Virus genome (UHGV): UHGV-0098743
DNA length: 12,455 bases
Reading direction: 5' to 3' (one strand)
DNA from: a virus
The translations under genes were made by a program, and so were the position numbers. The notes beneath the pieces are model-generated. The model worked only from the letters and a program-made list of their open reading frames with translations, was not told the origin of the DNA and did no database searches. Positions 78-12,455 of this stretch are shown here, piece by piece; positions within the stretch are counted from its first letter, which is position 1; each line of letters opens with the position of its first letter.

Positions 78-179
78 TTGCGTATCCTTTTATGTCTCCT
101 CACCGTCTGGTCGGTGTTTTGCTGAGACTTCTAACTTCCTGTTTTTGTTGGTGTTGTCCTTACACCGTCCAATCATGAT

Positions 180-223
180 TGGTGGGCTGGCGGGAGTTGA
201 ACCCGCGTCCGAAATTCCTACAT
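180..223 (-). other. ssrA: tmRNA (ssrA) 3'-terminal fragment: prophage attachment-site core
   Basis: The reverse complement reads ATGTAGGAATTTCGGACGCGGGTTCAACTCCCGCCAGCCCACCA, matching the 3' end of E. coli tmRNA as I recall it (ending CGGGUUCAACUCCCGCCAGCUCCACCA) apart from a one-base difference near the CCA end. Only about 44 nt are present; a full 363-nt ssrA would overlap the integrase ORF, so this is a partial att-core copy. Confidence 0.7.
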
Positions 224-317
224 ACCATTTTTAGCCTAATAAAAACATACATTTACTTTTAAAATCATCACGTTATTGTTTTTTGTATTTGTCGGGTTTT
301 ATGTGATTTTAAGTCTG

Positions 318-337
318 TGCCGCCAAAGTGCCGCCAT
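318..337. repeat. Tandem direct repeat GTGCCGCCA x2 (11-bp period) between the integrase stop and the att core; candidate Int arm-type site
   Basis: GTGCCGCCA at 318-326 and 329-337, read directly; the position in the att arm next to the int 3' end. Function is inferred. Confidence 0.25.
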
Positions 338-340
338 AAA

Positions 341-1366
341 TTAACGGTTCCAGTTGAGATTGTGAAGCGGGTTTTTTGTCACTGCATCTTCCAGGTGGTC
401 GGGTGCGAAGTGGGCGTAAATCATTGTCATTTTAATATCGGCGTGGCCCAGAATATCGCGCAGTACCAGTATATTTCCGCCGTTCATCATAAAATGACTG
501 GCGAAAGTATGGCGCAGAACGTGGGTGCATTGGCCCTCTGGCAAGTCAATGCTTGCCCGCTTGACTGCACGCTCAAAGGCTTTTCTGCATGGCGTGAATA
601 ACTTCCCTCGGTTCTTTGGTAACTCGTCATACAGCGCCTGAGATATAGGAACCGTTCGGTTTTTCTTGCCCTTTGTTTTGGTGTAGGTGATTCGGTATTT
701 AGATAACTGATGGCCCTGCAGGTTTTCGGCTTCACTCCAGCGGGCGCCGGTAGCTAAGCAGATTTTTGCAATCATGAGCAGGCTGGGGTTTTCTGAATCA
801 GCGCAGGCATCCAGCAGGCGTTTAATTTCTTCCGGCGCCAGGAACGCCAGTTCCCCCTCTGCGATTTTAAATGTTGGAAGCCCGGCGAGTGGGTTGGGGG
901 CTGACCAGTGGCCCAGCTTTTTCAGCGTGCCAAAAACTGATGATAGGTTGCGTTGTTCAAGGTTTACCGTGCGGGGCTTAACTGGCGACATAGGCAAGCC
1001 ATCTTCATTTTTGACTTCACCTTTTAGGCGTGCTTCACGGTATTTTGTAAAGTCACCGGCAGTCAGCTCCGAGGCAATGGGATCACCCAGGCCATTACAA
1101 ATAATGTTAAGTTTTGCCATCAGGCGCTTGGGGTCAGCAAGAGTCTGTCCGTAAAGTGAATGCCACTGCTTAATTACTTCTGACAATTGGCGCCGATCAT
1201 CCTTTTCGCCTAGCCATGGCTTTTTGTTCACTTCATCCATTGTGAAGTTTTCGAATGCTATGGCCTCGCCTTTCGTCGCAAATTGCTTGCGCACGCGCTT
1301 GCCATCGCGCCCGCTAGGGTAGCACTCACACAACCATTTCCCGTTTGGCTGTTTTCTGATGGTCAT
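341..1366 (-). CDS. int: Tyrosine recombinase / phage integrase (P2 Int-like), 341 aa
   Basis: Full-length ORF; the C-terminal catalytic region has HVLRHTFASHF and LGHADIKMTMIYAHF (R-H-R-Y signature of tyrosine recombinases). Lies next to the ssrA-derived att core and is transcribed toward it, as in P2/186-type prophages. ATG at 1366..1364. Confidence 0.93.
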   Translation of the reverse strand: MTIRKQPNGKWLCECYPSGRDGKRVRKQFATKGEAIAFENFTMDEVNKKPWLGEKDDRRQLSEVIKQWHSLYGQTLADPKRLMAKLNIICNGLGDPIASELTAGDFTKYREARLKGEVKNEDGLPMSPVKPRTVNLEQRNLSSVFGTLKKLGHWSAPNPLAGLPTFKIAEGELAFLAPEEIKRLLDACADSENPSLLMIAKICLATGARWSEAENLQGHQLSKYRITYTKTKGKKNRTVPISQALYDELPKNRGKLFTPCRKAFERAVKRASIDLPEGQCTHVLRHTFASHFMMNGGNILVLRDILGHADIKMTMIYAHFAPDHLEDAVTKNPLHNLNWNR

Positions 1367-1367
1367 A

Positions 1368-2000
1368 TCAAAGGCTCTTAATAACTTTTAAGACGTGGCC
1401 TACAACCTCGATATCATCCAGGCTGCACTCAAAAGATGATTCATCTTGATGAACTACCAATCTGTTTCCGGGGATACGGGTTAACTTCACAATACTTTTT
1501 ATTCCATCAATATCGACCAACCACACCCCATTTACTGGTGGTGTTTGGCTGCGATCCACTAGGTATGAATCACCACCGGTATTTACTAAGAGTAAGTTAC
1601 TGGAATTGGAAGGAAGCAAGCTGCTGTCAATGATTGCTTTACCTGTATCCACCAAAGAGCCGCTAGAAAGTGTCACTTTGTCAATTTCGGGAGAAACAAG
1701 GTCAGAAAGGTGTTTAACTTTGCCGGAGTTCACGAAATTGATATCTTTTTGCATGTCAATGTTTGAACCCGGCTCGCCTTGCCCTGTGGTAAGCCAGAGT
1801 AAAGAAACGCCTGTCTCAAGAGCGCACTGAATTACCCATTCTGCAGGGAAACTATCTCTTAAGTATCTGTTTGCCATGGTGCTTTTAGATGCGCCAAGAT
1901 GGTCGCACAATTGCTGTCTTGATTTGAAATCGTAGGCTGCCATTAGCCTATGGATGGCCTCTCTACCCCCGGTGTTCTCGCCTGTCTTTACTTGTATCAT
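1368..2000 (-). CDS. cI: CI-like immunity repressor (phage 186 CI type: N-terminal HTH, C-terminal S24-peptidase-like fold), 210 aa
   Basis: N-terminal segment QQLCDHLGASKSTMANRYL looks like an HTH. The C-terminal half has the topology of lambda CI/LexA C-domains (GGDSY, VKL, VVGHVLKV). Its stop lies 1 nt from the int start (cI-int operon) and it is divergent from the cox/cII operon. Whether the Ser/Lys dyad is catalytically competent cannot be judged by eye. Confidence 0.8.
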   Translation of the reverse strand: MIQVKTGENTGGREAIHRLMAAYDFKSRQQLCDHLGASKSTMANRYLRDSFPAEWVIQCALETGVSLLWLTTGQGEPGSNIDMQKDINFVNSGKVKHLSDLVSPEIDKVTLSSGSLVDTGKAIIDSSLLPSNSSNLLLVNTGGDSYLVDRSQTPPVNGVWLVDIDGIKSIVKLTRIPGNRLVVHQDESSFECSLDDIEVVGHVLKVIKSL

Positions 2001-2012
2001 TTTTTAATCCTA

Positions 2013-2041
2013 TTGACGTATCAAATATTGGATCGTAGTAT
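2013..2041 (+). promoter_or_regulatory. Candidate sigma70 early lytic promoter (pR/Pe-like) for the cox-cII operon
   Basis: TTGACG (2013-2018), 17-bp spacer, TAGTAT (2036-2041); about 80 bp upstream of the cox-like start and overlapping operator repeat R1. Confidence 0.45.
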
Positions 2042-2067
2042 CTTTTCGTATCAACTCTTGAATCGTA
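2017..2067. promoter_or_regulatory. Two 21-bp direct-repeat operator candidates (R1 2017-2037, R2 2047-2067) in the cI / cox intergenic switch region
   Basis: R1 CGTATCAAATATTGGATCGTA and R2 CGTATCAACTCTTGAATCGTA match at 18 of 21 positions, with centres 30 bp apart; each has internal partial dyad symmetry (TCAA...TTGA). R1 contains a GATC. A possible leftward promoter for cI (TTGATA -35 at 2054..2049, CAATAT -10 at 2030..2025 on the minus strand) overlaps them. Confidence 0.5.
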
Positions 2068-2119
2068 TAAAACAAGATAAAACGACGTAAACCAAACCTT
2101 AACCGAGAGATACTGCACT

Positions 2120-2368
2120 ATGAGCACTGATATTTCAATTCGTGTACCAAAAGTGATAGCGACGCCAGCCGAGTTTGCTAAGTGGGAAGGGTATTCCCGT
2201 GGTTCTGTTTATCAGATGATTCATAACGGTAAATTGGCTAACTACATTGAAAAGAAAGAAAAAAACAAAGGCCGCGTATTCATCCTTTACCTCAAGTACA
2301 AAAAAGACCAAGCAAGCAAAAACATGGACAAGTCTGCATTCAATTACAACGTTGTAGTTGGTTGTTAA
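2120..2368 (+). CDS. Cox/Apl-like excisionase and switch regulator, 82 aa
   Basis: First gene of the rightward operon, divergent from cI. The segment PAEFAKWEGYSRGSVYQMIHNGKL resembles the HTH region of P2 Cox (EFAKLIGKSTGAVRRMIDKGKL). RBS GAGAG upstream. Confidence 0.7.
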   Translation: MSTDISIRVPKVIATPAEFAKWEGYSRGSVYQMIHNGKLANYIEKKEKNKGRVFILYLKYKKDQASKNMDKSAFNYNVVVGC

Positions 2369-2400
2369 GTTCAATTATGTGAACTTTTGAGGTATGAAAC

Positions 2401-2910
2401 ATGTTTGATTATAAGATTTCCAAACATCCGCATTTTGATGAAGCCTGCCGGGCTTTCTCGCTGCGTCACAACATGGCGAAGCTGGCAGAACGCGCAGGAA
2501 TGAATGTCCAGACGCTGCGCAACAAGCTGAACCCGGAGCAACCGCATCAACTTACCCCGCCGGAGATCTGGCTGCTGACTGATATCACAGAAGACTCAAC
2601 GCTGGTTGACGGTTTTCTGGCTCAAATCCATTGCCTGCCGTGCGTGCCATTGAATGAAGTGGCAAAAGAGAAGCTGCCGCATTACGTCATGAGCGCTACT
2701 GCTGAAATCGGACGTGTTGCTGCCGGTGCCGTATCGGGTGATGTGAAAACCACCGCAGGCCGCCGCGATGTTATCAGCAGCATTAACTCTGTTACTCGTC
2801 TGATGGCACTGGCTGCCGTTTCGATGCAGGCGCGTTTACAGGCTAACCCGGCGATGGCAAGCGCGGTGGATACCGTGACGGGCCTCGGCGCTTCGTTTGG
2901 TCTGATCTGA
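2401..2910 (+). CDS. cII: Phage 186 CII-like transcriptional activator (CP76 family), 169 aa
   Basis: Same length as 186 CII (169 aa) and same position (second gene after apl/cox). N-terminal HTH-like segment NMAKLAERAGMNVQTLRNKLNP. Strong RBS GAGGT 7 nt upstream. Confidence 0.75.
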   Translation: MFDYKISKHPHFDEACRAFSLRHNMAKLAERAGMNVQTLRNKLNPEQPHQLTPPEIWLLTDITEDSTLVDGFLAQIHCLPCVPLNEVAKEKLPHYVMSATAEIGRVAAGAVSGDVKTTAGRRDVISSINSVTRLMALAAVSMQARLQANPAMASAVDTVTGLGASFGLI

Positions 2911-2917
2911 GGTGGTT

Positions 2918-3118
2918 ATGCTGACTAAAGAACCCTCTTTTGCGTCACTTCTCATAAAGCAAAGCCCGGCAATGCACTACGGTCACGGCTGGATCATGGG
3001 GAAGGATGGCAAACGCTGGCACCCGTGCCGCTCTCAGGATGAACTGCTGGCTGACCTGTCCACAACCAAACAGGGGAAATCATGGCTATTGAAGGCGCTG
3101 CAGCGACTGTCCCATTAA
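2918..3118 (+). CDS. Hypothetical small early protein, 66 aa (alternative GTG start at 2912)
   Basis: ORF in the early operon directly after cII; GGTGG just upstream of the ATG. Sits where 186 has the fil/dhr host-takeover genes, but I see no recognisable motif. Confidence 0.45.
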   Translation: MLTKEPSFASLLIKQSPAMHYGHGWIMGKDGKRWHPCRSQDELLADLSTTKQGKSWLLKALQRLSH

Positions 3119-3423
3119 GCCCCGGTAAAAGGCTGGACGCATTGAATCATATTGCGGAATTGAGAGCTAAAGTGTTTGGCCTAAATATTGAGCCGGAGCT
3201 TGAAAGGTTTATTAAAGATATGCGCGATCCACGCGACGTAAATAATAAACAGAATGAGCGGGCACTGGCAGCCATTTTTTATATGGCAAAAATTCCGGCA
3301 GAACGTCACGGCGTCAATATTAGTGATCTGACTACTGACGAAAAGCGGGAACTGGTGAAAGCAATGAATCATTTTCGTGCAGTGGTGAGCTTATTTCCCA
3401 AACGGCTAACCATGCCGAATTAA
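3082..3423 (+). CDS. Hypothetical early protein, 113 aa
   Basis: ORF with RBS AGGGGA; overlaps the upstream ORF by 37 nt; no recognisable motif. Confidence 0.5.
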   Translation: MAIEGAAATVPLSPGKRLDALNHIAELRAKVFGLNIEPELERFIKDMRDPRDVNNKQNERALAAIFYMAKIPAERHGVNISDLTTDEKRELVKAMNHFRAVVSLFPKRLTMPN

Positions 3424-3490
3424 TCCACAACAGAAATTAATGGCGTAAACCCGCCGGGCTTCTTATTGCCCAAATTCAGGAGAAACAACT

Positions 3491-3724
3491 ATGCGAAATA
3501 TTGAAACCCGTACCACTAAAACCGGACCAGATGATGCTGGTCTCAACCTGTTGCTGACTGAGGCACGCAAAGAAGAACGCCGGGGACGCGCAGATGTGAT
3601 GGCTGCGCGTCTGGATTCTTTAGCTGCTCGTATCGTGTCACGTCAGCTTAACCACACGGAAGCGGCTGAGCTGCTGCGTCAGGAAGCTGTGAAGATTCAG
3701 AACGAAGCGCAGGAGATCCACTGA
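3491..3724 (+). CDS. Hypothetical early protein, 77 aa, probably helical
   Basis: Good RBS CAGGAGAAA; its stop overlaps the next start (TGATG). Confidence 0.55.
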   Translation: MRNIETRTTKTGPDDAGLNLLLTEARKEERRGRADVMAARLDSLAARIVSRQLNHTEAAELLRQEAVKIQNEAQEIH

Positions 3725-3951
3725 TGGCTGATTCAATGGACCTTGTACAGCAGCGCGTTGAAGAAGAACGCCCGCGCCATATCCACACCGCCCGCAATAA
3801 AACGCCGGGCGTTTCCCGTGTTCTCTGCATTGATTGCGATGCGCCGATCCCGCCAGCTCGCCGCCGCGCCATTCCGGGCGTGCAGTGCTGCGTCACTTGT
3901 CAGGAAATCGCAGAGCTGAAAGGCAAACACTACAACGGGGGTGCTGTATGA
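3724..3951 (+). CDS. TraR/DksA-family C4 zinc-finger protein (P2 orf82-like), 75 aa
   Basis: CIDC-x17-CCVTC gives the C-x2-C...C-x2-C spacing typical of phage TraR/DksA zinc fingers; it is translationally coupled to neighbours on both sides. Confidence 0.75.
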   Translation: MADSMDLVQQRVEEERPRHIHTARNKTPGVSRVLCIDCDAPIPPARRRAIPGVQCCVTCQEIAELKGKHYNGGAV

Positions 3952-4808
3952 GCACTATTCTGAAATGGGCGGGAAATAAAACCTCCATCATGCCGGAACT
4001 GATTAAGCATCTTCCTGCTGGCACGCGACTGGTTGAACCTTTCGCGGGTTCATGCGCTGTAATGATGGCGACAGACTATCCTCATTATCTTGTCGCGGAT
4101 ATTAACCCAGACCTGATAAATCTTTTTAAGCATATTGCATTTGACTGCGAGAAATTTATTTCAAATTCAAAAGGATTCTTTTCAGGCACAAATAGCGCTG
4201 AGTCTTATTACAACATCCGTCAGGATTTTAATCATTCGGCTGAAACCACCGATTTCTGGAAAGCTGTATTTTTCCTTTATCTTAATCGCCATGGTTATCG
4301 TGGGTTGTGCCGCTATAATTTGAGCGGTCATTTTAATGTCCCTTACGGTAATTATAAAAATCCGTATTTTCCTGAAAGTGAAATACGCGCTTTTGCAGAA
4401 AAGGCTCAACGCGCAACGTTTATCTGTGCCAGCTATGACGAAACACTGGCGCTGCTGCAGGCTGGTGATGTTGTTTATTGTGATCCGCCATACGATGGCA
4501 CATTTAGCGGTTATCACACTGCCGGTTTTACAGAAGACGATCAGTATCATCTGGCGTCTATTCTTGAGCGCCGGTCATCAGAAGGTCATCCGGTTATCGT
4601 GTCCAACAGCGACACGTCCCTGACCCGTTCGCTTTATCGTAATTTTACCCGCCATCGCATCACTGCAAAGCGCAGCATGGGTGTGGCTGCCGGCGAGAGT
4701 AAATCTGCAGCAGAAATCATCGCCACAAAATCAGCTGGCTGGTTTGGTGTCGATTTGGCGTCCGGTCCAGATATCTCGGTGGAAACTGAGGTGCGGGCGT
4801 GGCAGTGA
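3948..4808 (+). CDS. dam: DNA adenine methyltransferase (Dam-like, N6-adenine, D12 class), 287 aa
   Basis: N-terminus [38 protein letters not shown] parallels E. coli Dam (LKWAGGK...LVEPFVGAGSV); catalytic motif [15 protein letters not shown] (DPPY). ATG at 3948 overlaps the upstream stop (ATGA). The six-frame ORF starting at 3834 is an in-frame upstream extension and is unlikely to be the true start. Confidence 0.9.
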
Positions 4809-6238
4809 GTAAATTCACATTACATAATGCACCAACCACCGGCGGCTCGAATGAGGCCGCCGTGGCCTTTTCATGGAATAACCCCAAAAAAGCGGTTAAC
4901 CCATATCTGGACCCGGCGGAAGTTGCGCCGGGGTCTGCGCTTTCAAACCTGATTGCTCTTTACGCTGCGGATAACGAGCAGGAGCAGCTGCGCCGTGAGG
5001 CGCTGAGCGATGAGGTCTGGGAACGCTATTTCTTCAATGAATCCCGTGATCCTGTCCAGCGCGAAATGGAGCAGGACCGGCTGATTAGTCGTGCCAAAAT
5101 GGCGCGCGAGCAGCAGCGTTTTAATCCCGATCTGGTCATTCTGGCTGACGTTAACGCCATGCCGTCCCATATCAGCAAGCCTCTGCTGGAGCGGATTAAA
5201 TATTTCCATAGCCTGGGCAGAGCAAAAGCCTATTCCCGCTACCTGCGCGAAACAATTAGGCCCTGTCTTGAGCGGCTGGAGCGCGTGCGTGACAGTCAGG
5301 TGTCTGCCTCTTTCCGGTTCATGGCAAGTCATGACGGGCTGGAGGGGCTGCTGGTACTGCCTGAAATGAATCAGGATCAGGTCAAGCGTCTTTCCACGCT
5401 GGTTGCGGCTCATATGAGCATGTGTCTTGATGCGGCCTGCGGTGATCTGTTTGTCAGCGACGATGTTAAACCAGAAGAAATCCGCCAGGCATGGGAAAGG
5501 GTTGCAGCAGAGGCGATGCGCCTTGAGATCATCCCGCCTGCGTTTGAGCAGTTACGCCGCAAAAAGCGTCGACGCAAGCCGGTGCCCTATGAACTGATCC
5601 CACCGTCGCTGGCGCGGATGCTGTGCGCGGACTGGTGGTATCGCAAATTGTGGCAGATGCGCTGCGAGTGGCGGGAGGAACAGCTGCGTGCTGTCTGCCT
5701 GGTCAACAAAAAAGCGTCCCCGTATGTCAGCTATGAAGCCGTGATCCACAAGCGCGAGCAGCGCCGCAAATCGCTGGAGTTCTTCCGCTCACATGAGCTG
5801 GTCAACGAAGACGGTGACACGCTGGACATGGAAGACGTGGTGGCGTATGTCCGCAACAACCCGGATAAGCTGCACCTTTTCGTTGATAACGGCTCACTGG
5901 TGGCAACCGGTGCCAGCTCTATGTCATGGGAATACCGCTACACCCTGAACGTTGTGATCGAGGATTTCAGCGGCGACCAGAATCTGCTGATGGCTCCCGT
6001 GTTGCTGTGGCTCAGCGAAAATCAGGCGGACGCCATCAACAACCCGGAGCTGCGCGAAAAACTGTTCACCTTTGAAGTGGATATTCTGCGCAATGATGTG
6101 TGCGATATCAGCCTGAATCTGCAACTGACGGAGCGTGTACTGGTCAGCACTGACGGCGGTATCTCAACGGTTGAGGCGGAGCCAGAACCCGACGAGCCAG
6201 AAGAAATGTGGACGGTGAAACGTGGAAAATCTGCATAA
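4799..6238 (+). CDS. Hypothetical protein, 479 aa, in the position where P2/186 carry replication gene A; function unknown
   Basis: Long ORF with host-like codon usage, GTG start overlapping the dam stop. I could not find a Walker A, HUH or other catalytic motif. Contains the basic stretch [17 protein letters not shown] and an acidic C-terminal tail [11 protein letters not shown]. Its stop overlaps the S-like gene by 17 nt. Confidence 0.7.
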
Positions 6239-6668
6239 AGTGGATGAGTGGCTGACAGCGCTGCTGGCGAATCTGGAGCCGGCTGCGCGTCAGCACATGA
6301 TGTGTGAACTGGCGCAGCAGCTGCGTCGAAATCAGCAGAACAACATCCGCCTGCAGCGCAACCCCGACGGAACCGGCTACGAGCCGCGCCGGGTAACAGC
6401 CCGCAGCAAAAAGGGGCGCATCAAACGCCAGATGTTTGCAAAACTTCGCACCACCAAATACCTGAAAGCTGCAGCGAGCGCGAACTCTGCGAGCGTGCAG
6501 TTTGTGGGACAAGTGCAGCGTATCGCTCGGGTACACCATTACGGCTTACGTGATCGTGTTAGCCGCAATGGACCATTAGTAATTTATAGAGAACGAAGGT
6601 TACTTGGATTCAATGAGAATAATGATTGCATTAAAAATATATTAATTATGTCTTTATTTAATACATAA
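6222..6668 (+). CDS. S: Phage virion morphogenesis / tail-completion protein (P2 gpS / Mu gpG family), 148 aa; C-terminus possibly altered by the downstream insertion
   Basis: Pattern [28 protein letters not shown] ... [20 protein letters not shown] resembles the gpS/gpG family as I remember it. The last ~20 codons ([18 protein letters not shown]) lie in abruptly AT-rich DNA. Confidence 0.55.
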
Positions 6669-6680
6669 TGTATCGTGGTA

Positions 6681-6718
6681 AAAAATAGTAAAGCCAAATG
6701 GCTGGCTAATTGCCAGCC
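6681..6718 (-). terminator. Putative Rho-independent terminator downstream of the ariB-like gene
   Basis: Stem GGCTGGC (6700-6706), loop TAATT, stem GCCAGCC (6712-6718); on the minus strand it is followed by the U-rich tract AUUUGGCUUUACUAUUUUU. Confidence 0.5.
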
Positions 6719-6724
6719 GTAACT

Positions 6725-7582
6725 CTATGAAATTAGTGATATTTTTTGATTGTAGTAATCATAATCCGCATGTTCTTCAGTAAAGAATAATTCAAAAGCC
6801 GTTAGCATATTTGAATAAAAACTATCTTTTGATATTGCAGTTTTTCTCTCATTTTTAGCTAAGTAATTGGTTATGAATCTTAATGATGCTGAGAATAGAA
6901 AGTGCCCCTTTATCCAATGCGTTATGCAAGTGTTGGCAGGAAATTGAATGTTGTTTTTTTCTGCTAACCCTACATTTCTGAAATCATCAGGAAGGGTTTG
7001 AATATAAGCATTTATCTTATCTTGACATGTTTTGTAAGAGTTTTTTGATTGCATAAATCTATCGCATGAATCACCTACTACGGAATAGCCACGCTGATTT
7101 AAATGATTGTAAATATCTAAGGCAATTAGGTCTTCAATATTGTTATAAAACTCTAATAGCCAGGAGTTTATATTTATTCCTTGGATTTCTTTGGCACTGT
7201 ATCTTCCCATGTGTTTTAACACACGGGATAGGACTTTCTCATCGACTATAGTATTTTCAATTGAGTAACCTTTTGTATAGATGATGTTTGTATGATTTAC
7301 TAAGTTGGATGAAAAATGATTCAGATCTGCATCGCGGGCAACAATTGCGTTTATTTGTCCTGATGTGATTCGCTCAATATAAGGTTCTAATGCTTCACAC
7401 CCTCCAACTTCTTGCACTTCAACACTTAGTCGACCATTTTTTTTGAAAACTATTTCCCAAAATCCAATATCATCCTCACCTTCAACATATACCATGATAT
7501 CAGCATCATAAAACATGCTGATAACATTTTCCGCCTCGTCAGACCAATTAAAGTTATCTGTTCGAATCTCATTATTGGACAT
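6725..7582 (-). CDS. ariB: DUF4435/TOPRIM-like (OLD-family nuclease-like) protein, AriB-like effector candidate of a PARIS-type defence pair, 285 aa from ATG 7582 (alternative GTG start at 7612)
   Basis: N-terminal motif MVYVEGEDD followed by AIVARDAD, i.e. the acidic E...DxD arrangement of TOPRIM/OLD nuclease domains. AT-rich codon usage. Its start overlaps the upstream ATPase gene stop by 11 nt (ATGTCCAATAA). Domain identity is from memory of family motifs, not a search. Confidence 0.75.
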   Translation of the reverse strand: MSNNEIRTDNFNWSDEAENVISMFYDADIMVYVEGEDDIGFWEIVFKKNGRLSVEVQEVGGCEALEPYIERITSGQINAIVARDADLNHFSSNLVNHTNIIYTKGYSIENTIVDEKVLSRVLKHMGRYSAKEIQGININSWLLEFYNNIEDLIALDIYNHLNQRGYSVVGDSCDRFMQSKNSYKTCQDKINAYIQTLPDDFRNVGLAEKNNIQFPANTCITHWIKGHFLFSASLRFITNYLAKNERKTAISKDSFYSNMLTAFELFFTEEHADYDYYNQKISLIS

Positions 7583-8825
7583 TGACAAGTTTCTCCATGT
7601 TAAAAATTGCACTCCTGTATTTTGAAGCTACTTCTGGAGAATGTGTGGCAGCTATTACTTGTGCATTGGGATTGAGTTTTTTGATTGCTGGGATAATGTT
7701 TCTTTGCCATTGAATATGTAGGGAGAGTTCAGGCTCATCTGTTAGGAAAATATATTGTTTTTCTCTTTGTAATAGGGTTTCTATGAATAAAATAAGTAAT
7801 TGCTTCTCACCTGAAGATAAATTTTCCTGAATTATTGGTCCGTAAGTATTCTTTATGGAAAGTATTCCGCCTTGAAAGTCAAATTCCTTATCAGTAATAA
7901 ATTCTTTTAAAATACTTAAAAATTGTTCAATGGGAGCGAAAACTAAAGATGTTTTTTCTTTAGATTTTAAAGACATTCTAATTATTTTTTGTGTCTTTCT
8001 TAGCGCTTCAATTGAGCGGATGTCAAAACCATCTTTTTTATTTTGTTTTAATTCTGCAATGGTGTGATCAATAGTGTCAACATGGAAATTTATTTTCCGA
8101 CGGACATTCATATCAATAGCGTTTAGTTGTGTGTACGCACTTAAAAGGTTTTGTTTTTCTTCCTCCTTGTTAAATTGAATGTTGTACGCCTTATCATCAA
8201 TATCATCTTTACTATATAGAATAGATGCTAAAACTTCTTTTTGAAGTTCTAATGCAATATCTCTCGCTCGTTGAGATAATTCAAGTTGATATTTTGTTAA
8301 TTCCTGCATTAATTCTGATAGTTTATAATCGACAGGGTTGATAAAGCGAGAGCCGTATTTGTCTCTAACCTCAAAGTCGTCACTATTCCTTAGTCTATAG
8401 ACGGATAAAGATGAGAGTGAAACCAGTTTTGCTAATTCTGCTCTTAACTCCTCAGTCTCTTCTTGTGCTCTGCGTCTATAACTGAGGGAGATTCTTCTGT
8501 CATCGGCGTTGAATAGTCGGATGGTATGTTTTTTTGATGAAAGTTGATACTCTATTTTAGAGAACGGTGATGCATCACTCTCGATTTTCTTAATTTTTAT
8601 TGTCTTAGTTTTCTTTTTGTCCTTTAGTTTTATTTCGGCACTATTGAAATCATTGTTGTTAATGCCATCAAGGTCAATTGATAAAATTGAATGCAAAATA
8701 TTCATAAAAGTTGTTTTGCCGGTTCCATTCCTTCCAATGATGATGTTTACATCATCATTAAAAGAGCAAAGAGCATTTAATCTTTGCCAAAAACCATTGA
8801 TAGCGATGCTTTGTATTTTATACAT
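7572..8825 (-). CDS. ariA: ABC-type ATPase (AAA_15/AAA_21, OLD/SMC-like), AriA-like sensor candidate of a PARIS-type defence pair, 417 aa from ATG 8825 (TTG at 8828 possible)
   Basis: Walker A GRNGTGKTT near the N-terminus; a long insert domain; C-terminal ABC signature-like SSGEKQLL, Walker B IFLTDEPELSLH and H-loop ATHSPEV. Strong RBS AAGGAG 7 nt before the ATG. AT-rich. Confidence 0.82.
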   Translation of the reverse strand: MYKIQSIAINGFWQRLNALCSFNDDVNIIIGRNGTGKTTFMNILHSILSIDLDGINNNDFNSAEIKLKDKKKTKTIKIKKIESDASPFSKIEYQLSSKKHTIRLFNADDRRISLSYRRRAQEETEELRAELAKLVSLSSLSVYRLRNSDDFEVRDKYGSRFINPVDYKLSELMQELTKYQLELSQRARDIALELQKEVLASILYSKDDIDDKAYNIQFNKEEEKQNLLSAYTQLNAIDMNVRRKINFHVDTIDHTIAELKQNKKDGFDIRSIEALRKTQKIIRMSLKSKEKTSLVFAPIEQFLSILKEFITDKEFDFQGGILSIKNTYGPIIQENLSSGEKQLLILFIETLLQREKQYIFLTDEPELSLHIQWQRNIIPAIKKLNPNAQVIAATHSPEVASKYRSAIFNMEKLVNVQ

Positions 8826-8868
8826 CAACTTACTCCTTGTTTTGGTTGAGTCGAACTTATCAACTGTT

Positions 8869-8886
8869 TGTACCAGCTATAACACA
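8869..8886 (+). promoter_or_regulatory. TGT-N12-ACA dyad upstream of V: possible Ogr/Delta-type late-activator site (P_V-like)
   Basis: TGT (8869-8871), 12 nt, ACA (8884-8886), read directly. P2 late promoters carry this dyad near -55. Here the dyad centre is only about 56 bp from the V start codon, so the spacing is tight and this may be coincidence. Confidence 0.3.
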
Positions 8887-8915
8887 ATTATGCTGGTTCG
8901 TACGAATCATTTCAA
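8886..8915 (-). promoter_or_regulatory. Candidate sigma70 promoter for the ariA-ariB operon
   Basis: On the minus strand: TTGAAA (8915..8910), 18-bp spacer, ATAATT (8891..8886); predicted leader about 55 nt to the ariA ATG. Confidence 0.35.
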
Positions 8916-8933
8916 ATGTTCAATATAGGCAGT

Positions 8934-9512
8934 ATGAACACACAACTTACCGAAATCATGCGCCTTATCACCAATCTGATCCGTACCGGCACTGTGACCG
9001 AAGTGGACCGGAAAAAGTGGCTGTGTCGGGTGAAAGTGGGCGAGCTTGAAACTAACTGGATTAACTGGCTGACGCTGCGCGCCGGTGGTGCCCGTACATG
9101 GTGGTGTCCGTCGCCGGATGAGCAGGTGGTGTTGCTGAGCATGGGCGGCAATCTGGAAACCGCTTTTGTGCTGCCCGCTATCTACTCCAATCAGTTTCCG
9201 CCACCGTCGGATTCCGTGGACGGCTGCGTGACGGAGTACCCGGACGGGGGATGGTTTGAGTATGAACCCGCCACCGGACGGTGGCATGTCAGGGGCATCA
9301 AATCCATGGTGATCGAGGCATCAGACAGTGTCACCTACAAAACCGGTGAGTTTGTGGTGGAGGCTGACACCACGCGCATTAACAGCGAGGTGGTGATCAA
9401 TGGCGGCGTCACCCAGGGCGGCGGCGCAATGAGTTCTAACGGGATCGTAGTTGATGACCATGAGCATACTGGCGTTCTGAAAGGCGGCGACAACACGGGG
9501 GGACCGGTATGA
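8934..9512 (+). CDS. V: Baseplate assembly protein V (P2 gpV-like spike), 192 aa (ORF opens at 8916; 8934 is the homologous start)
   Basis: N-terminus MNTQLTEIMRLITNLIRTGTVTEVD parallels P2 gpV (MNTLANIQELARALRNMIRTG...); conserved WLTLRAGGARTWWCPS and C-terminal HEHTG. Stop overlaps the W start (ATGA). Confidence 0.85.
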   Translation: MNTQLTEIMRLITNLIRTGTVTEVDRKKWLCRVKVGELETNWINWLTLRAGGARTWWCPSPDEQVVLLSMGGNLETAFVLPAIYSNQFPPPSDSVDGCVTEYPDGGWFEYEPATGRWHVRGIKSMVIEASDSVTYKTGEFVVEADTTRINSEVVINGGVTQGGGAMSSNGIVVDDHEHTGVLKGGDNTGGPV

Positions 9513-9868
9513 CGTTGTATATCGGTATGAGCAGGAATGACGGGCAGACCATTGCAGATACAGACCATCTGCGCCAGTCGGTGCGGGATATTCTGCTGAC
9601 GCCGCAGGGCAGTCGTCTTGCGCGTCGGGAATATGGTTCCCTGCTGTCTGCCCTGATAGACCAGCCGCAGACCCCGGCGCTGCGCCTGCAGATTATGTCT
9701 GCGGTCTATGTGGCGCTGAACCGTTGGGAGCCGCGCCTTACGCTGGACTCCATCACCATCAACGGCAATTTTGATGGCTCTATGGTGGTTGAACTTACCG
9801 GACACGGCAATAACGGCGCACCGGTTTCCCTTTCCGTATCAACAGGAGCAGACAATGGCAGTCATTGA
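9509..9868 (+). CDS. W: Baseplate assembly protein W (P2 gpW / GP25-like), 119 aa
   Basis: Size and position between V and J; gpW-like N-terminal region (DLRQSVRDILLTPQGSRLARREYGS). Confidence 0.85.
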   Translation: MTLYIGMSRNDGQTIADTDHLRQSVRDILLTPQGSRLARREYGSLLSALIDQPQTPALRLQIMSAVYVALNRWEPRLTLDSITINGNFDGSMVVELTGHGNNGAPVSLSVSTGADNGSH

Positions 9869-10763
9869 CCTTTCCCGGCTACCGCCGCCGCAGATTGTGG
9901 ATGTGCCGGACTTTGAGGCATTGCTGGCAGAACGCAAGGCCGCCTTTGTGGCCCTCCATCCGGCTGATGAACAGGAGGCTGTTATGCGCACGTTAGCGCT
10001 GGAGTCAGAACCTGTCACCAAACTGCTGCAGGAAAATACTTACCGCGAAATCCTGCTGCGTCAGCGAATTAATGAGGCTGCGCAGGCGGTCATGGTGGCC
10101 TATTCCATGGGAAATGACCTTGAACAACTGGCAGGTAACTGCAACGTGAAGCGCCTGACGGTAGTCCCTGCAGATAATGACTCGGTGCCGCCGGTCGCCG
10201 CAGTGATGGAAAGTGATGAAGCATTACGCCAGCGCATTCCTGCAGCATTTGAGGGGCTGTCCGTTGCAGGGCCGACGGGAGCCTATGAGTTCCACGCCAG
10301 AAGTGCCGACGGGCGGGTGGCTGATGCCAGCGCAACCAGTCCGGCACCGGCAGAGGTGGTGCTTACCGTGCTGAGCCGTGAGGGGGACGGTACGGCAGGG
10401 GCTGACCTGCTGGCGGTGGTTGAGCAGGCGCTTAACAGTGAAAAAGTTCGCCCGGTGGCAGACCGCCTGACGGTGCGCAGCGCAGAAATTATTCCGTACA
10501 GCGTGGACGCAACGATCTTCCTTTATCCGGGGCCGGAGGCTGAGCCGGTGATGGCAGAAGCAAAAGCCAGTCTGCAGAAATACATCGCCAGTCAGACGCG
10601 GCTGGGACGTGATATCCGCCGCAGCGCCATTTATGCCGCGTTGCATGTGGAGGGCGTCCAGCGTGTGGAGCTGGCGTCCCCGCAGGGTGATGTGGTGCTG
10701 GATAAGACGCAGGCGGCATCCTGTACTGAATGGAGCATCATCAACGGGGGCACGGATGAATAG
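9855..10763 (+). CDS. J: Baseplate assembly protein J (P2 gpJ-like), 302 aa
   Basis: Starting at ATG 9855 (RBS AGGAG at 9844-9848) gives 302 aa, the same as P2 gpJ; conserved order V-W-J-I-H. The longer ORF from 9771 is an in-frame extension overlapping W. Confidence 0.88.
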   Translation: MAVIDLSRLPPPQIVDVPDFEALLAERKAAFVALHPADEQEAVMRTLALESEPVTKLLQENTYREILLRQRINEAAQAVMVAYSMGNDLEQLAGNCNVKRLTVVPADNDSVPPVAAVMESDEALRQRIPAAFEGLSVAGPTGAYEFHARSADGRVADASATSPAPAEVVLTVLSREGDGTAGADLLAVVEQALNSEKVRPVADRLTVRSAEIIPYSVDATIFLYPGPEAEPVMAEAKASLQKYIASQTRLGRDIRRSAIYAALHVEGVQRVELASPQGDVVLDKTQAASCTEWSIINGGTDE

Positions 10764-11361
10764 CCTGTTGCCGCCGGGTTCGTCGCCGCTTGAGCGCCGA
10801 CTGGCGCAGACCTGCAGCGGGATTTCCGATCTGCAGGTATCGCTGCGTGATTTGTGGAATCCGTCAATCTGCCCGGTCAGATTCCTGCCTTATCTGGCCT
10901 GGGCGTTTTCTGTTGACCGCTGGGATGAGAGCTGGACAGAAAGCGTCAAGCGCCGCGTTGTGCAGGACGCTTTTTATATCCATCAGCACAAGGGGACAAC
11001 CAGCGCCGTGCGGCGCGTGGTGGAGCCGTTCGGCTTTCTGATCCGCATCATTGAGTGGTGGCAGACTGGCGAAATACCAGGGACGTTCCGTCTGGATATT
11101 GGCGTGCAGGACCAGGGCATAACAGAAGAAACCTATCTGGAGCTGGAGCGCCTGATCGGTGACGCCAAACCGTGCAGCCGTCACCTGGTTGGTATGTCCA
11201 TCAACCTGCAGACAGGTGGCCCGTATTTTGTGGGCGCAGCCACCTACACCGGCGAAGAAATCACGATCTACCCGTATATCAACGAAACCATTATTTCCGG
11301 CGGCACCGCTTATGAGGGCGGGGCGGTCCATGTTATTGACACGATGAGAGTGAACCCATGA
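10756..11361 (+). CDS. I: Baseplate/tail protein I (P2 gpI-like), 201 aa
   Basis: Position between J and H; ATG at 10756 overlaps the J stop; the longer ORF from 10609 is an out-of-context extension. Confidence 0.82.
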   Translation: MNSLLPPGSSPLERRLAQTCSGISDLQVSLRDLWNPSICPVRFLPYLAWAFSVDRWDESWTESVKRRVVQDAFYIHQHKGTTSAVRRVVEPFGFLIRIIEWWQTGEIPGTFRLDIGVQDQGITEETYLELERLIGDAKPCSRHLVGMSINLQTGGPYFVGAATYTGEEITIYPYINETIISGGTAYEGGAVHVIDTMRVNP

Positions 11362-12455
11362 GCGCAAAATTTTACACCCTGCTGACGGATATCGGCGCGG
11401 CGAAACTGGTAAGCGCCGCCGCGCTCGGTGTCCCACTAAAAATTACCCATATGGCGGTGGGCAGCGGTGGTGGTATGCTGCCCACACCCAACGCGCAACA
11501 GACCGCGTTAGTGGCTGAGGAACGCCGCGCAGCGCTGAATATGCTGTATATCGACCCACAGAACAGCAGCCAGATTATTGCTGAGCAGGTGATCCCGGAA
11601 AATGAGGGCGGGTGGTGGATTCGTGAAGTCGGCCTGTTTGATGAAACAGGTGCGCTAATTGCTGTGGGAAACTGCCCGGAGAGCTACAAGCCGAAGCTGG
11701 CGGAGGGCAGCGGACGCACGCAGACCGTGCGAATGGTACTGATTACCAGCAGCACGGATAACATCACCCTGAAAATTGACCCCGCTGTGGTTCTGGCAAC
11801 CCGCAAATATGTGGATGATAAGGTGCTGGAACTTAAGGTGTATGTGGATGACCTGATGGCAAAGCATCTTGCTGCGGTTGATCCTCATTCGCAATATGCA
11901 CCAAAAGACAGTCCGACTCTGACAGGCATGCCTAAAACGCCAACGCCACCGGCAGGAAACAACAGCACCCTGATTGCCAGTACAGCCTTTGTACAGGCCG
12001 CTATTCTTGCCATGATAGGTGGCGCACCGGCAACGCTGGATACGCTGAAAGAAATTGCGGCAGCTATCAATAATGACCCGAATTTCAGTACCACCATTAA
12101 CAATGCGCTGGCACTGAAAGCACCACTGGCAAGCCCAGCCCTGACCGGAACGCCAACGGCTCCGACTGCGGCGCAGACTGTGAACAATACGCAGATTGCC
12201 ACTACAGCATTTGTGAAGGCAGCTATTGCCGGGCTGGTTGGTTCATCGCCGGAGGCGCTGGACACACTGAATGAACTGGCAGCTGCGCTGGGGAATGATC
12301 CTAACTTTGCGACAACAGTGATGAACGCGCTGGCGGGGAAACAGCCCCTCGATGCCACTTTGACTAACCTCAGCGGGAAAAGTGTTTCAGCCCTTCTACA
12401 ATACCTTGGTTTGGGAGAAGCGGCAACGAGGAACGTCGGAACGGATACCGGGCAA
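11358..12455 (+). CDS. H: Tail fibre protein H (P2 gpH-like), 5' part only; the ORF runs off the end of the window
   Basis: N-terminus MSAKFYTLLTDIGAAKLVSAA...MAVGSGGGMLP...ESYKPKLAEGSGRTQTVRMV...YVDDKV closely parallels the conserved P2 gpH N-terminal domain. No stop through 12455 (366 codons). Absent from the ORF track only because it is open-ended. Confidence 0.88.
   Translation, partial: MSAKFYTLLTDIGAAKLVSAAALGVPLKITHMAVGSGGGMLPTPNAQQTALVAEERRAALNMLYIDPQNSSQIIAEQVIPENEGGWWIREVGLFDETGALIAVGNCPESYKPKLAEGSGRTQTVRMVLITSSTDNITLKIDPAVVLATRKYVDDKVLELKVYVDDLMAKHLAAVDPHSQYAPKDSPTLTGMPKTPTPPAGNNSTLIASTAFVQAAILAMIGGAPATLDTLKEIAAAINNDPNFSTTINNALALKAPLASPALTGTPTAPTAAQTVNNTQIATTAFVKAAIAGLVGSSPEALDTLNELAAALGNDPNFATTVMNALAGKQPLDATLTNLSGKSVSALLQYLGLGEAATRNVGTDTGQ
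11910..12353 (+). repeat. Tandem duplicated ~74-codon tail-fibre repeat module inside H
   Basis: Units starting SPTLTGMPKTPTPP... (11910) and SPALTGTPTAPTAA... (12132) align over 74 aa with about half the residues identical, including TAFV.AAI, LDTL.E.AAA, NDPNF.TT and NALA.K. Confidence 0.7.

Follow-up and report, generated by a model that had tools for sequence, protein, structure and literature searches.

The closest described counterparts of the locus considered here are two proteins of P2-like temperate phages, the gpA of P2 and 186 (PF05840), which belongs to the HUH endonuclease superfamily, and the gpR of P2 (PF06891). In P2, two tyrosines located in motif C constitute the active site of the A protein (Odegrip & Haggard-Ljungquist 2001, cited in PMC3986222) and, as stated in the same article, the origin of replication is located within gene A itself (PMC3986222). 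According to the P2 record, the genes from O to S form one late operon, whose promoter, situated between P and O, needs an activator; cos is next to Q. Enterobacterial prophages that have decayed by deletion, known as cryptic or defective prophages, have reportedly been surveyed by Bobay and colleagues in 2014. Such cryptic prophages carry internal deletions of replication, packaging or lysis genes, and the repressor, the integrase and accessory or defence genes stay in place.

The window analysed here is a stretch of DNA of 12,455 nucleotides from the UHGV virus genome UHGV-0098743, and the integrase, the repressor and the rightward operon that follows them are laid out as in the early region of P2/186-like temperate phages. 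The prophage is of the P2/186 type, related to Fels-2 and SEN8, and is integrated at ssrA in E. coli. We consider, with a probability of about 0.93, that the 479-aa ORF closing its early operon is a chimeric pseudogene that results from a single deletion in this P2/186-like E. coli prophage, the front being supplied by replication gene A and the end by tail gene R. The relevant features of the window are as follows.

341-1366, leftward: integrase
1368-2000: CI-type repressor
2013-2041, plus strand: candidate promoter of early lytic transcription, situated between CI and the first rightward gene, from a consensus match only; placed like Pe of P2
3948-4808, plus strand: Dam-type DNA adenine methylase (Pfam MethyltransfD12, E 7.4e-71), its last 10 nt shared with the start of the fusion, an overlap also present in the parent
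4799-6238, plus strand: chimeric ORF A'::'R, 479 aa, RefSeq WP_220403627.1
4799-5842, plus strand: first 1044 nt of replication gene A, codons 1-348 of 804 (100% identity, Pfam, PHROGs)
5839-5842, no strand: deletion junction, with a 4-bp microhomology (GGTG) shared by the two parental breakpoints
5843-6238, plus strand: 3' part of tail gene R, codons 16-146 and stop (Pfam, PHROGs, 100% identity to the parent R)
6222-6668, plus strand: gene S, tail completion/virion morphogenesis (Pfam Phage_tail_S, E 1.7e-35)
6700-6718, no strand: GC-rich hairpin between the convergent S and ariB genes, scored only as a minus-strand terminator

The reading frame of the fusion opens at a GTG codon at position 4799, with a Shine-Dalgarno-like GAGG 7 nt upstream, and its stop codon ends at position 6238 of the plus strand. 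It is the longest and final ORF of the rightward early operon, in which it is preceded by genes encoding a CII/CP76 homologue, Fil, a DUF5347 protein, a DUF2732 protein, a TraR/DksA zinc-finger protein and the Dam methylase. This is the very place that gpA occupies in P2 and 186, at the end of the early operon and after the methylase gene. The initial annotation had described a 479-aa ORF at these coordinates as the longest of the early operon, lying where gene A would be; coordinates and translation agree, and the first 1044 nt turn out to be gene A. It had also drawn attention to a basic stretch in the middle of the protein, to an acidic C-terminal tail and to a stop codon 17 nt inside an S-like ORF. 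These three traits are present as described and each has a native origin. Indeed, gpA supplies the basic stretch (residues 252-268) and gpR the acidic tail near the C-terminus, and the 17-nt overlap with S, an ORF whose assignment is borne out by its Pfam match, is the R/S overlap that already exists in the parent.

Profile searches divide the 479-aa protein into two parts. On the N-terminal side, Pfam Phage_GPA (PF05840) matches residues 193-356 with model positions 1-160 of 321 (E 4.7e-42), and the PHROGs family phrog_91, annotated as 'nicking at origin of replication', matches residues 5-355 (E 2.5e-79). On the C-terminal side, Pfam P2_Phage_GpR (PF06891) matches residues 348-464 with model positions 15-133 of 133 (E 9e-39), and phrog_65, annotated as 'tail terminator', matches residues 344-474 (E 9.7e-51). 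An intact gpA replication endonuclease of 804 aa, found in at least eight complete E. coli genomes, has an N-terminus 100% identical to residues 1-348 of the fusion, while residues 349-479 correspond to codons 16-146 of R, the tail terminator gene in that prophage, likewise with 100% identity to the parent gene. The complete gpA catalytic domain is absent from the fusion, as the Phage_GPA alignment ends at the junction and covers only half of the model. Neither is a stand-alone gpR of about 145-155 aa with its native N-terminus kept, R codons 1-15 being swapped for 348 aa of gpA. Among all solved structures, none was matched by the fusion sequence at E values up to 0.01, and a PADLOC scan of the fusion matched no defence model.

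The event that joined the two parts can be read base by base against an intact relative. As parent reference we used the prophage of E. coli LS45 (locus L001), which runs complete from its integrase gene to ogr, is flanked by ypjA and ssrA, and encodes an A protein of 804 aa and an R protein of 146 aa (R at 17096-17536 and S at 17520-17966 of that locus). By megablast against complete E. coli genomes, window positions 4799-5842 are 100% identical to the 5' ends of intact genes named 'replication endonuclease' in eight genomes, and every match ends at 5842. From position 5839 on, the window is 99.8-100% identical to R (named 'phage tail protein'), S and the downstream genes of the same eight-genome set. 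In LS45, window 179-5842 corresponds to positions 734-6397, with one substitution (at 3183) besides an indel in attL at about 180-185, and window 5839-12420 corresponds to the parent sequence from 17137 on, with four substitutions, so that both flanks are at least 99.9% identical to the parent. The 10,743 bp in between (6398-17140 of the parent locus) are missing from the window, and codon 348 of A is joined in frame to codon 16 of R. The initial annotation had put forward a deletion fusion as one of two possibilities, to be checked by asking whether the two halves match different unrelated phage proteins. By both Pfam and PHROGs they do, one half falling to gpA and the other to gpR, and the in-frame deletion of 10,743 bp relative to the parent gives this suggestion its physical basis.

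The two breakpoints share the four bases GGTG; if deletions fell at random in the parent prophage, 1.8% of them would be expected to show a microhomology of at least 4 bp (P = 0.018). The junction thus bears the signature of illegitimate recombination, a short microhomology and neither an IS nor an att site. Judging from this signature, the mechanism fits RecA-independent illegitimate recombination, which may have proceeded by slipped mispairing or by microhomology-mediated joining. In the scenario that we propose, a single microhomology-mediated deletion would have removed the 10,743 bp from A codon 348 to R codon 16; the reading frames of A and R would coincide by chance, allowing translation to run from the native A start through the junction to the native R stop. 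The resulting chimeric protein would consist of half a nuclease domain devoid of its active site, followed by an N-terminally truncated tail terminator carrying a bulky tag.

The loss of the replication functions can be followed residue by residue. The parent A protein aligns with P2 gpA at 34% identity. In this alignment, the active-site tyrosines Y450 and Y454 of P2 gpA correspond to Y503 and Y507 of the parent, inside an identical YIAKYISKNI motif which is deleted in the fusion with no equivalent left, and the P2 HWH motif (from H399) corresponds to H449-W-H451 of the parent, again in the deleted part. The initial annotation had rightly seen neither HUH nor paired-tyrosine motifs, both of which lie in the intact parent past the breakpoint at residue 348. 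As for the origin, the nick site of the P2 record (at about codon 620 of A) aligns with residue 682 or so of the parent, also beyond the breakpoint. A nucleotide search of the parent and of the window with the P2 ori nick region gave no similarity, as expected at 34% identity of the A proteins, and by the position of the P2 nick site only, the ori would have been lost with the deletion. That the ORF shows no Rep motifs follows from the deletion, which took away the HUH motif, the two catalytic tyrosines and the presumed ori. More generally, every oddity listed in the initial annotation, namely the missing Rep motifs, the basic stretch, the acidic tail and the overlap with S, is explained by native parent-gene sequence together with the deletion.

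According to the annotation of the parent, the deleted segment comprises the last 456 codons of A, small ORFs along with a DinI-family gene, the genes for the portal, both terminase subunits, the scaffold, the major capsid protein and head completion, as well as gene X, the holin, the lysozyme (endolysin), a lysA-like gene, lysB, lysC and codons 1-15 of R. Everything from A codon 349 to R codon 15 is therefore gone relative to the parent, including the presumed divergent promoter region between P and O, and Ogr-dependent late expression as in the O operon would not be retained. By the P2 gene order, the deletion would also have taken cos and the late, Ogr-dependent promoter from which the O-to-S operon is read. 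Taken at its gene content, the prophage remnant would be unable to replicate, to package DNA or to lyse the cell.

The deletion also alters the transcriptional context of what remains of R and of S. The early operon is repressed by CI in 186-type lysogens. If they are transcribed, the truncated R and S would now depend on the early promoter under CI repression, for which positions 2013-2041 are a candidate. Downstream of S, we assume that the hairpin at 6700-6718 also terminates the rightward transcript; in P2, a terminator follows S at the equivalent place.

Set against the P2 and 186 systems, the fusion keeps the N-terminal 43% of gpA unaltered, with the same start codon, but is devoid of the HUH motif, the active-site tyrosines, the C-terminal 456 residues and the presumed intragenic ori. 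From its residues, the fusion protein is predicted to be unable to nick DNA or to start replication. Regarding gpR, the full parent R is about 50% identical to that of P2 and the native stop overlapping S is kept, but 348 residues of gpA stand in place of the first 15, and both the presumed late promoter and the genes that precede R in the O-to-S operon have disappeared. The fusion belongs by descent to both the gpA and gpR families and, as far as its sequence tells, fails the defining functional features of both. Compared with cryptic enterobacterial prophages, the sole unusual point is the in-frame junction, which yields a long and tidy-looking ORF. The phenomenon is already known: this is a textbook deletion scar and an ordinary sign of prophage decay.

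The exact 479-aa protein occurs on at least 10 contigs, and an identical 42-nt junction was found in five loci, two from NCBI assemblies (one of them a 4.67-Mb contig of GCA_019585165.1), two from metagenome contigs at ENA and one from a Logan assembly, all 99.95-100% identical to the window. The 42-nt junction is absent from the intact parent and from P2, none of 5,426 complete E. coli genomes carries it, and a fused arrangement with at least 80% of the ORF in one place was found in none of 50,697 phage records. This distribution indicates, as judged from the near-identity of the copies, one deletion event that was then inherited.

Other deletions of this kind are found in the same prophage and in related ones. 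In one of the junction-bearing loci (L003, at 20248-21440 and beyond), the same prophage carries, outside the window, a second deletion of 5,303 bp with a 3-bp microhomology (CTG). It fuses codons 1-242 of the sheath gene in frame to codons 102-366 of D, giving a product of 507 aa, and takes out the tube, E/E', tape measure and U genes. This copy thus has a damaged tail module as well, an argument against a tailocin-like domestication. Two further E. coli strains carry in-frame fusions that begin in gene A. In EC596 (locus L002, 8973-10763), a gene A'::'lysB of 596 codons joins about 540 codons of A to the end of lysB, and in EC05 (locus L009, 5973-7445), a gene A'::'lysC of 490 codons joins about 433 codons of A to the end of lysC. 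Both are P2-like prophages about 82% identical to the prophage of the window, that of EC596 residing at another chromosomal site, between rcdA and ybjL, and their deletions are independent events starting inside A. The clustering of the EC596 and EC05 endpoints is an ascertainment effect and gives no evidence of a hotspot, because the query itself joined A and R. All four junctions (4/4) are in frame with a downstream gene, for which a rough chance estimate, calculated post hoc on n = 4, is about 0.025. This could hint at selection for read-through and is recorded here as a curiosity only.

Two explanations that dispense with a deletion can be firmly set aside. That an assembly or scaffolding artefact joined two parts of one intact prophage was considered in view of the abrupt join and of its absence from the complete E. 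coli genomes, and has no positive support; the same 42-nt junction recurs in five independently assembled contigs from three sources, among them the 4.67-Mb contig and gut metagenomes, and the microhomology is typical of real deletions. The identical junction in five independent assemblies therefore excludes an artefact for all practical purposes. Just as negligible is the probability of the other possibility raised in the initial annotation, an uncharacterised native early protein, in this case of a distinct phage lineage. While the position in the early operon and the lack of Rep and NTPase motifs would suit such a protein, the gpA and gpR parts each have a strong family match and 100% identity to two separate, well-known genes of one and the same prophage, and this candidate was rejected.

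A third explanation accepts the deletion and supposes that the in-frame chimera has acquired a function, for instance that the catalytically dead gpA fragment interferes with the replication of superinfecting P2-like phages, or that the extended gpR poisons tail completion or head-tail joining. The state of the gene speaks for it: the ORF is intact, has its native start and a good ribosome-binding site and is translationally coupled to S, all of which also stands against a lack of function, the lineage has been sampled in those 10 or more contigs, and the four junctions are in frame. However, the break cuts the Pfam GPA domain in half (model position 160 of 321) and every catalytic motif is gone, the defence models of PADLOC do not match, and the gene sits in an early operon which CI keeps repressed in 186-type lysogens. 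Furthermore, the near-zero divergence offers no sign of retention under selection, the junction-bearing sequences being at least 99.95% alike and hence too similar for a test of purifying selection, and the other two A fusions end in pieces of lysB and lysC, so that no A-R architecture recurs. We regard an acquired function as very unlikely, and give the same slim odds to the broader idea that in-frame deletion fusions in P2-like remnants in general are kept as dominant-negative decoys against superinfecting relatives. Returning to the deletion scar, the chimeric protein is most likely a functionless by-product, a view that we hold somewhat less strongly than the deletion origin itself. The remnant probably persists since the deletion would have disarmed a lethal prophage yet kept immunity and a PARIS-type defence pair.

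Recognition of the scar bears on the way such loci are named. RefSeq/PGAP designates WP_220403627.1 as 'replication endonuclease', and clustering at 90% identity places the fusion in a cluster represented by a gpR of 143 aa. The first name is misleading, for the protein is devoid of catalytic residues and one third of its length comes from a tail protein; it is an annotation hazard, as is the gpR cluster. The scar moreover indicates a prophage that is immobilised, being deprived of replication, packaging and lysis functions, and adds one more base-resolved case of prophage decay by microhomology-mediated deletion in which immunity and a defence island are spared.

The cargo and the ends of the prophage call for some further observations. 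Between the tail genes S and V, positions 6725-8825 of the minus strand encode a PARIS-type pair made of AriB (DUF4435, PADLOC AriB E 9.4e-23) and AriA, an AAA_15/AAA_21 ATPase (PADLOC AriA E 1.3e-36). The pair sits in an island of low GC content (0.29-0.36, against about 0.55 in the flanks). This slot is the orf30 position of P2, and in other P2-like prophages it holds SIR2, FRG-domain and retron genes as cargo.

At the left end of the prophage, positions 179-215 or so are the reverse complement of the 3' end of ssrA (TGGTGGGCTGGCGGGAGTTGAACCCGCGTCCGAAAT) and constitute the attL copy, which has a 1-nt deletion relative to strain LS45. Positions 1-178 are the same chromosomal site as the LS45 flank, with a 1-nt indel in the gapped alignment. 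ARAGORN detected no tRNA or tmRNA gene in the window, the ssrA-derived attL copy being only a fragment. At the opposite end, in window 12421-12455, the identity to LS45 stops abruptly within the tail-fibre gene H, and another locus (L006) matches up to the end of the window. On sequence grounds, this abrupt end in H is consistent with swapping of tail-fibre C-termini. The LS45 parent also has a region resembling an invertible segment, with a recombinase downstream.
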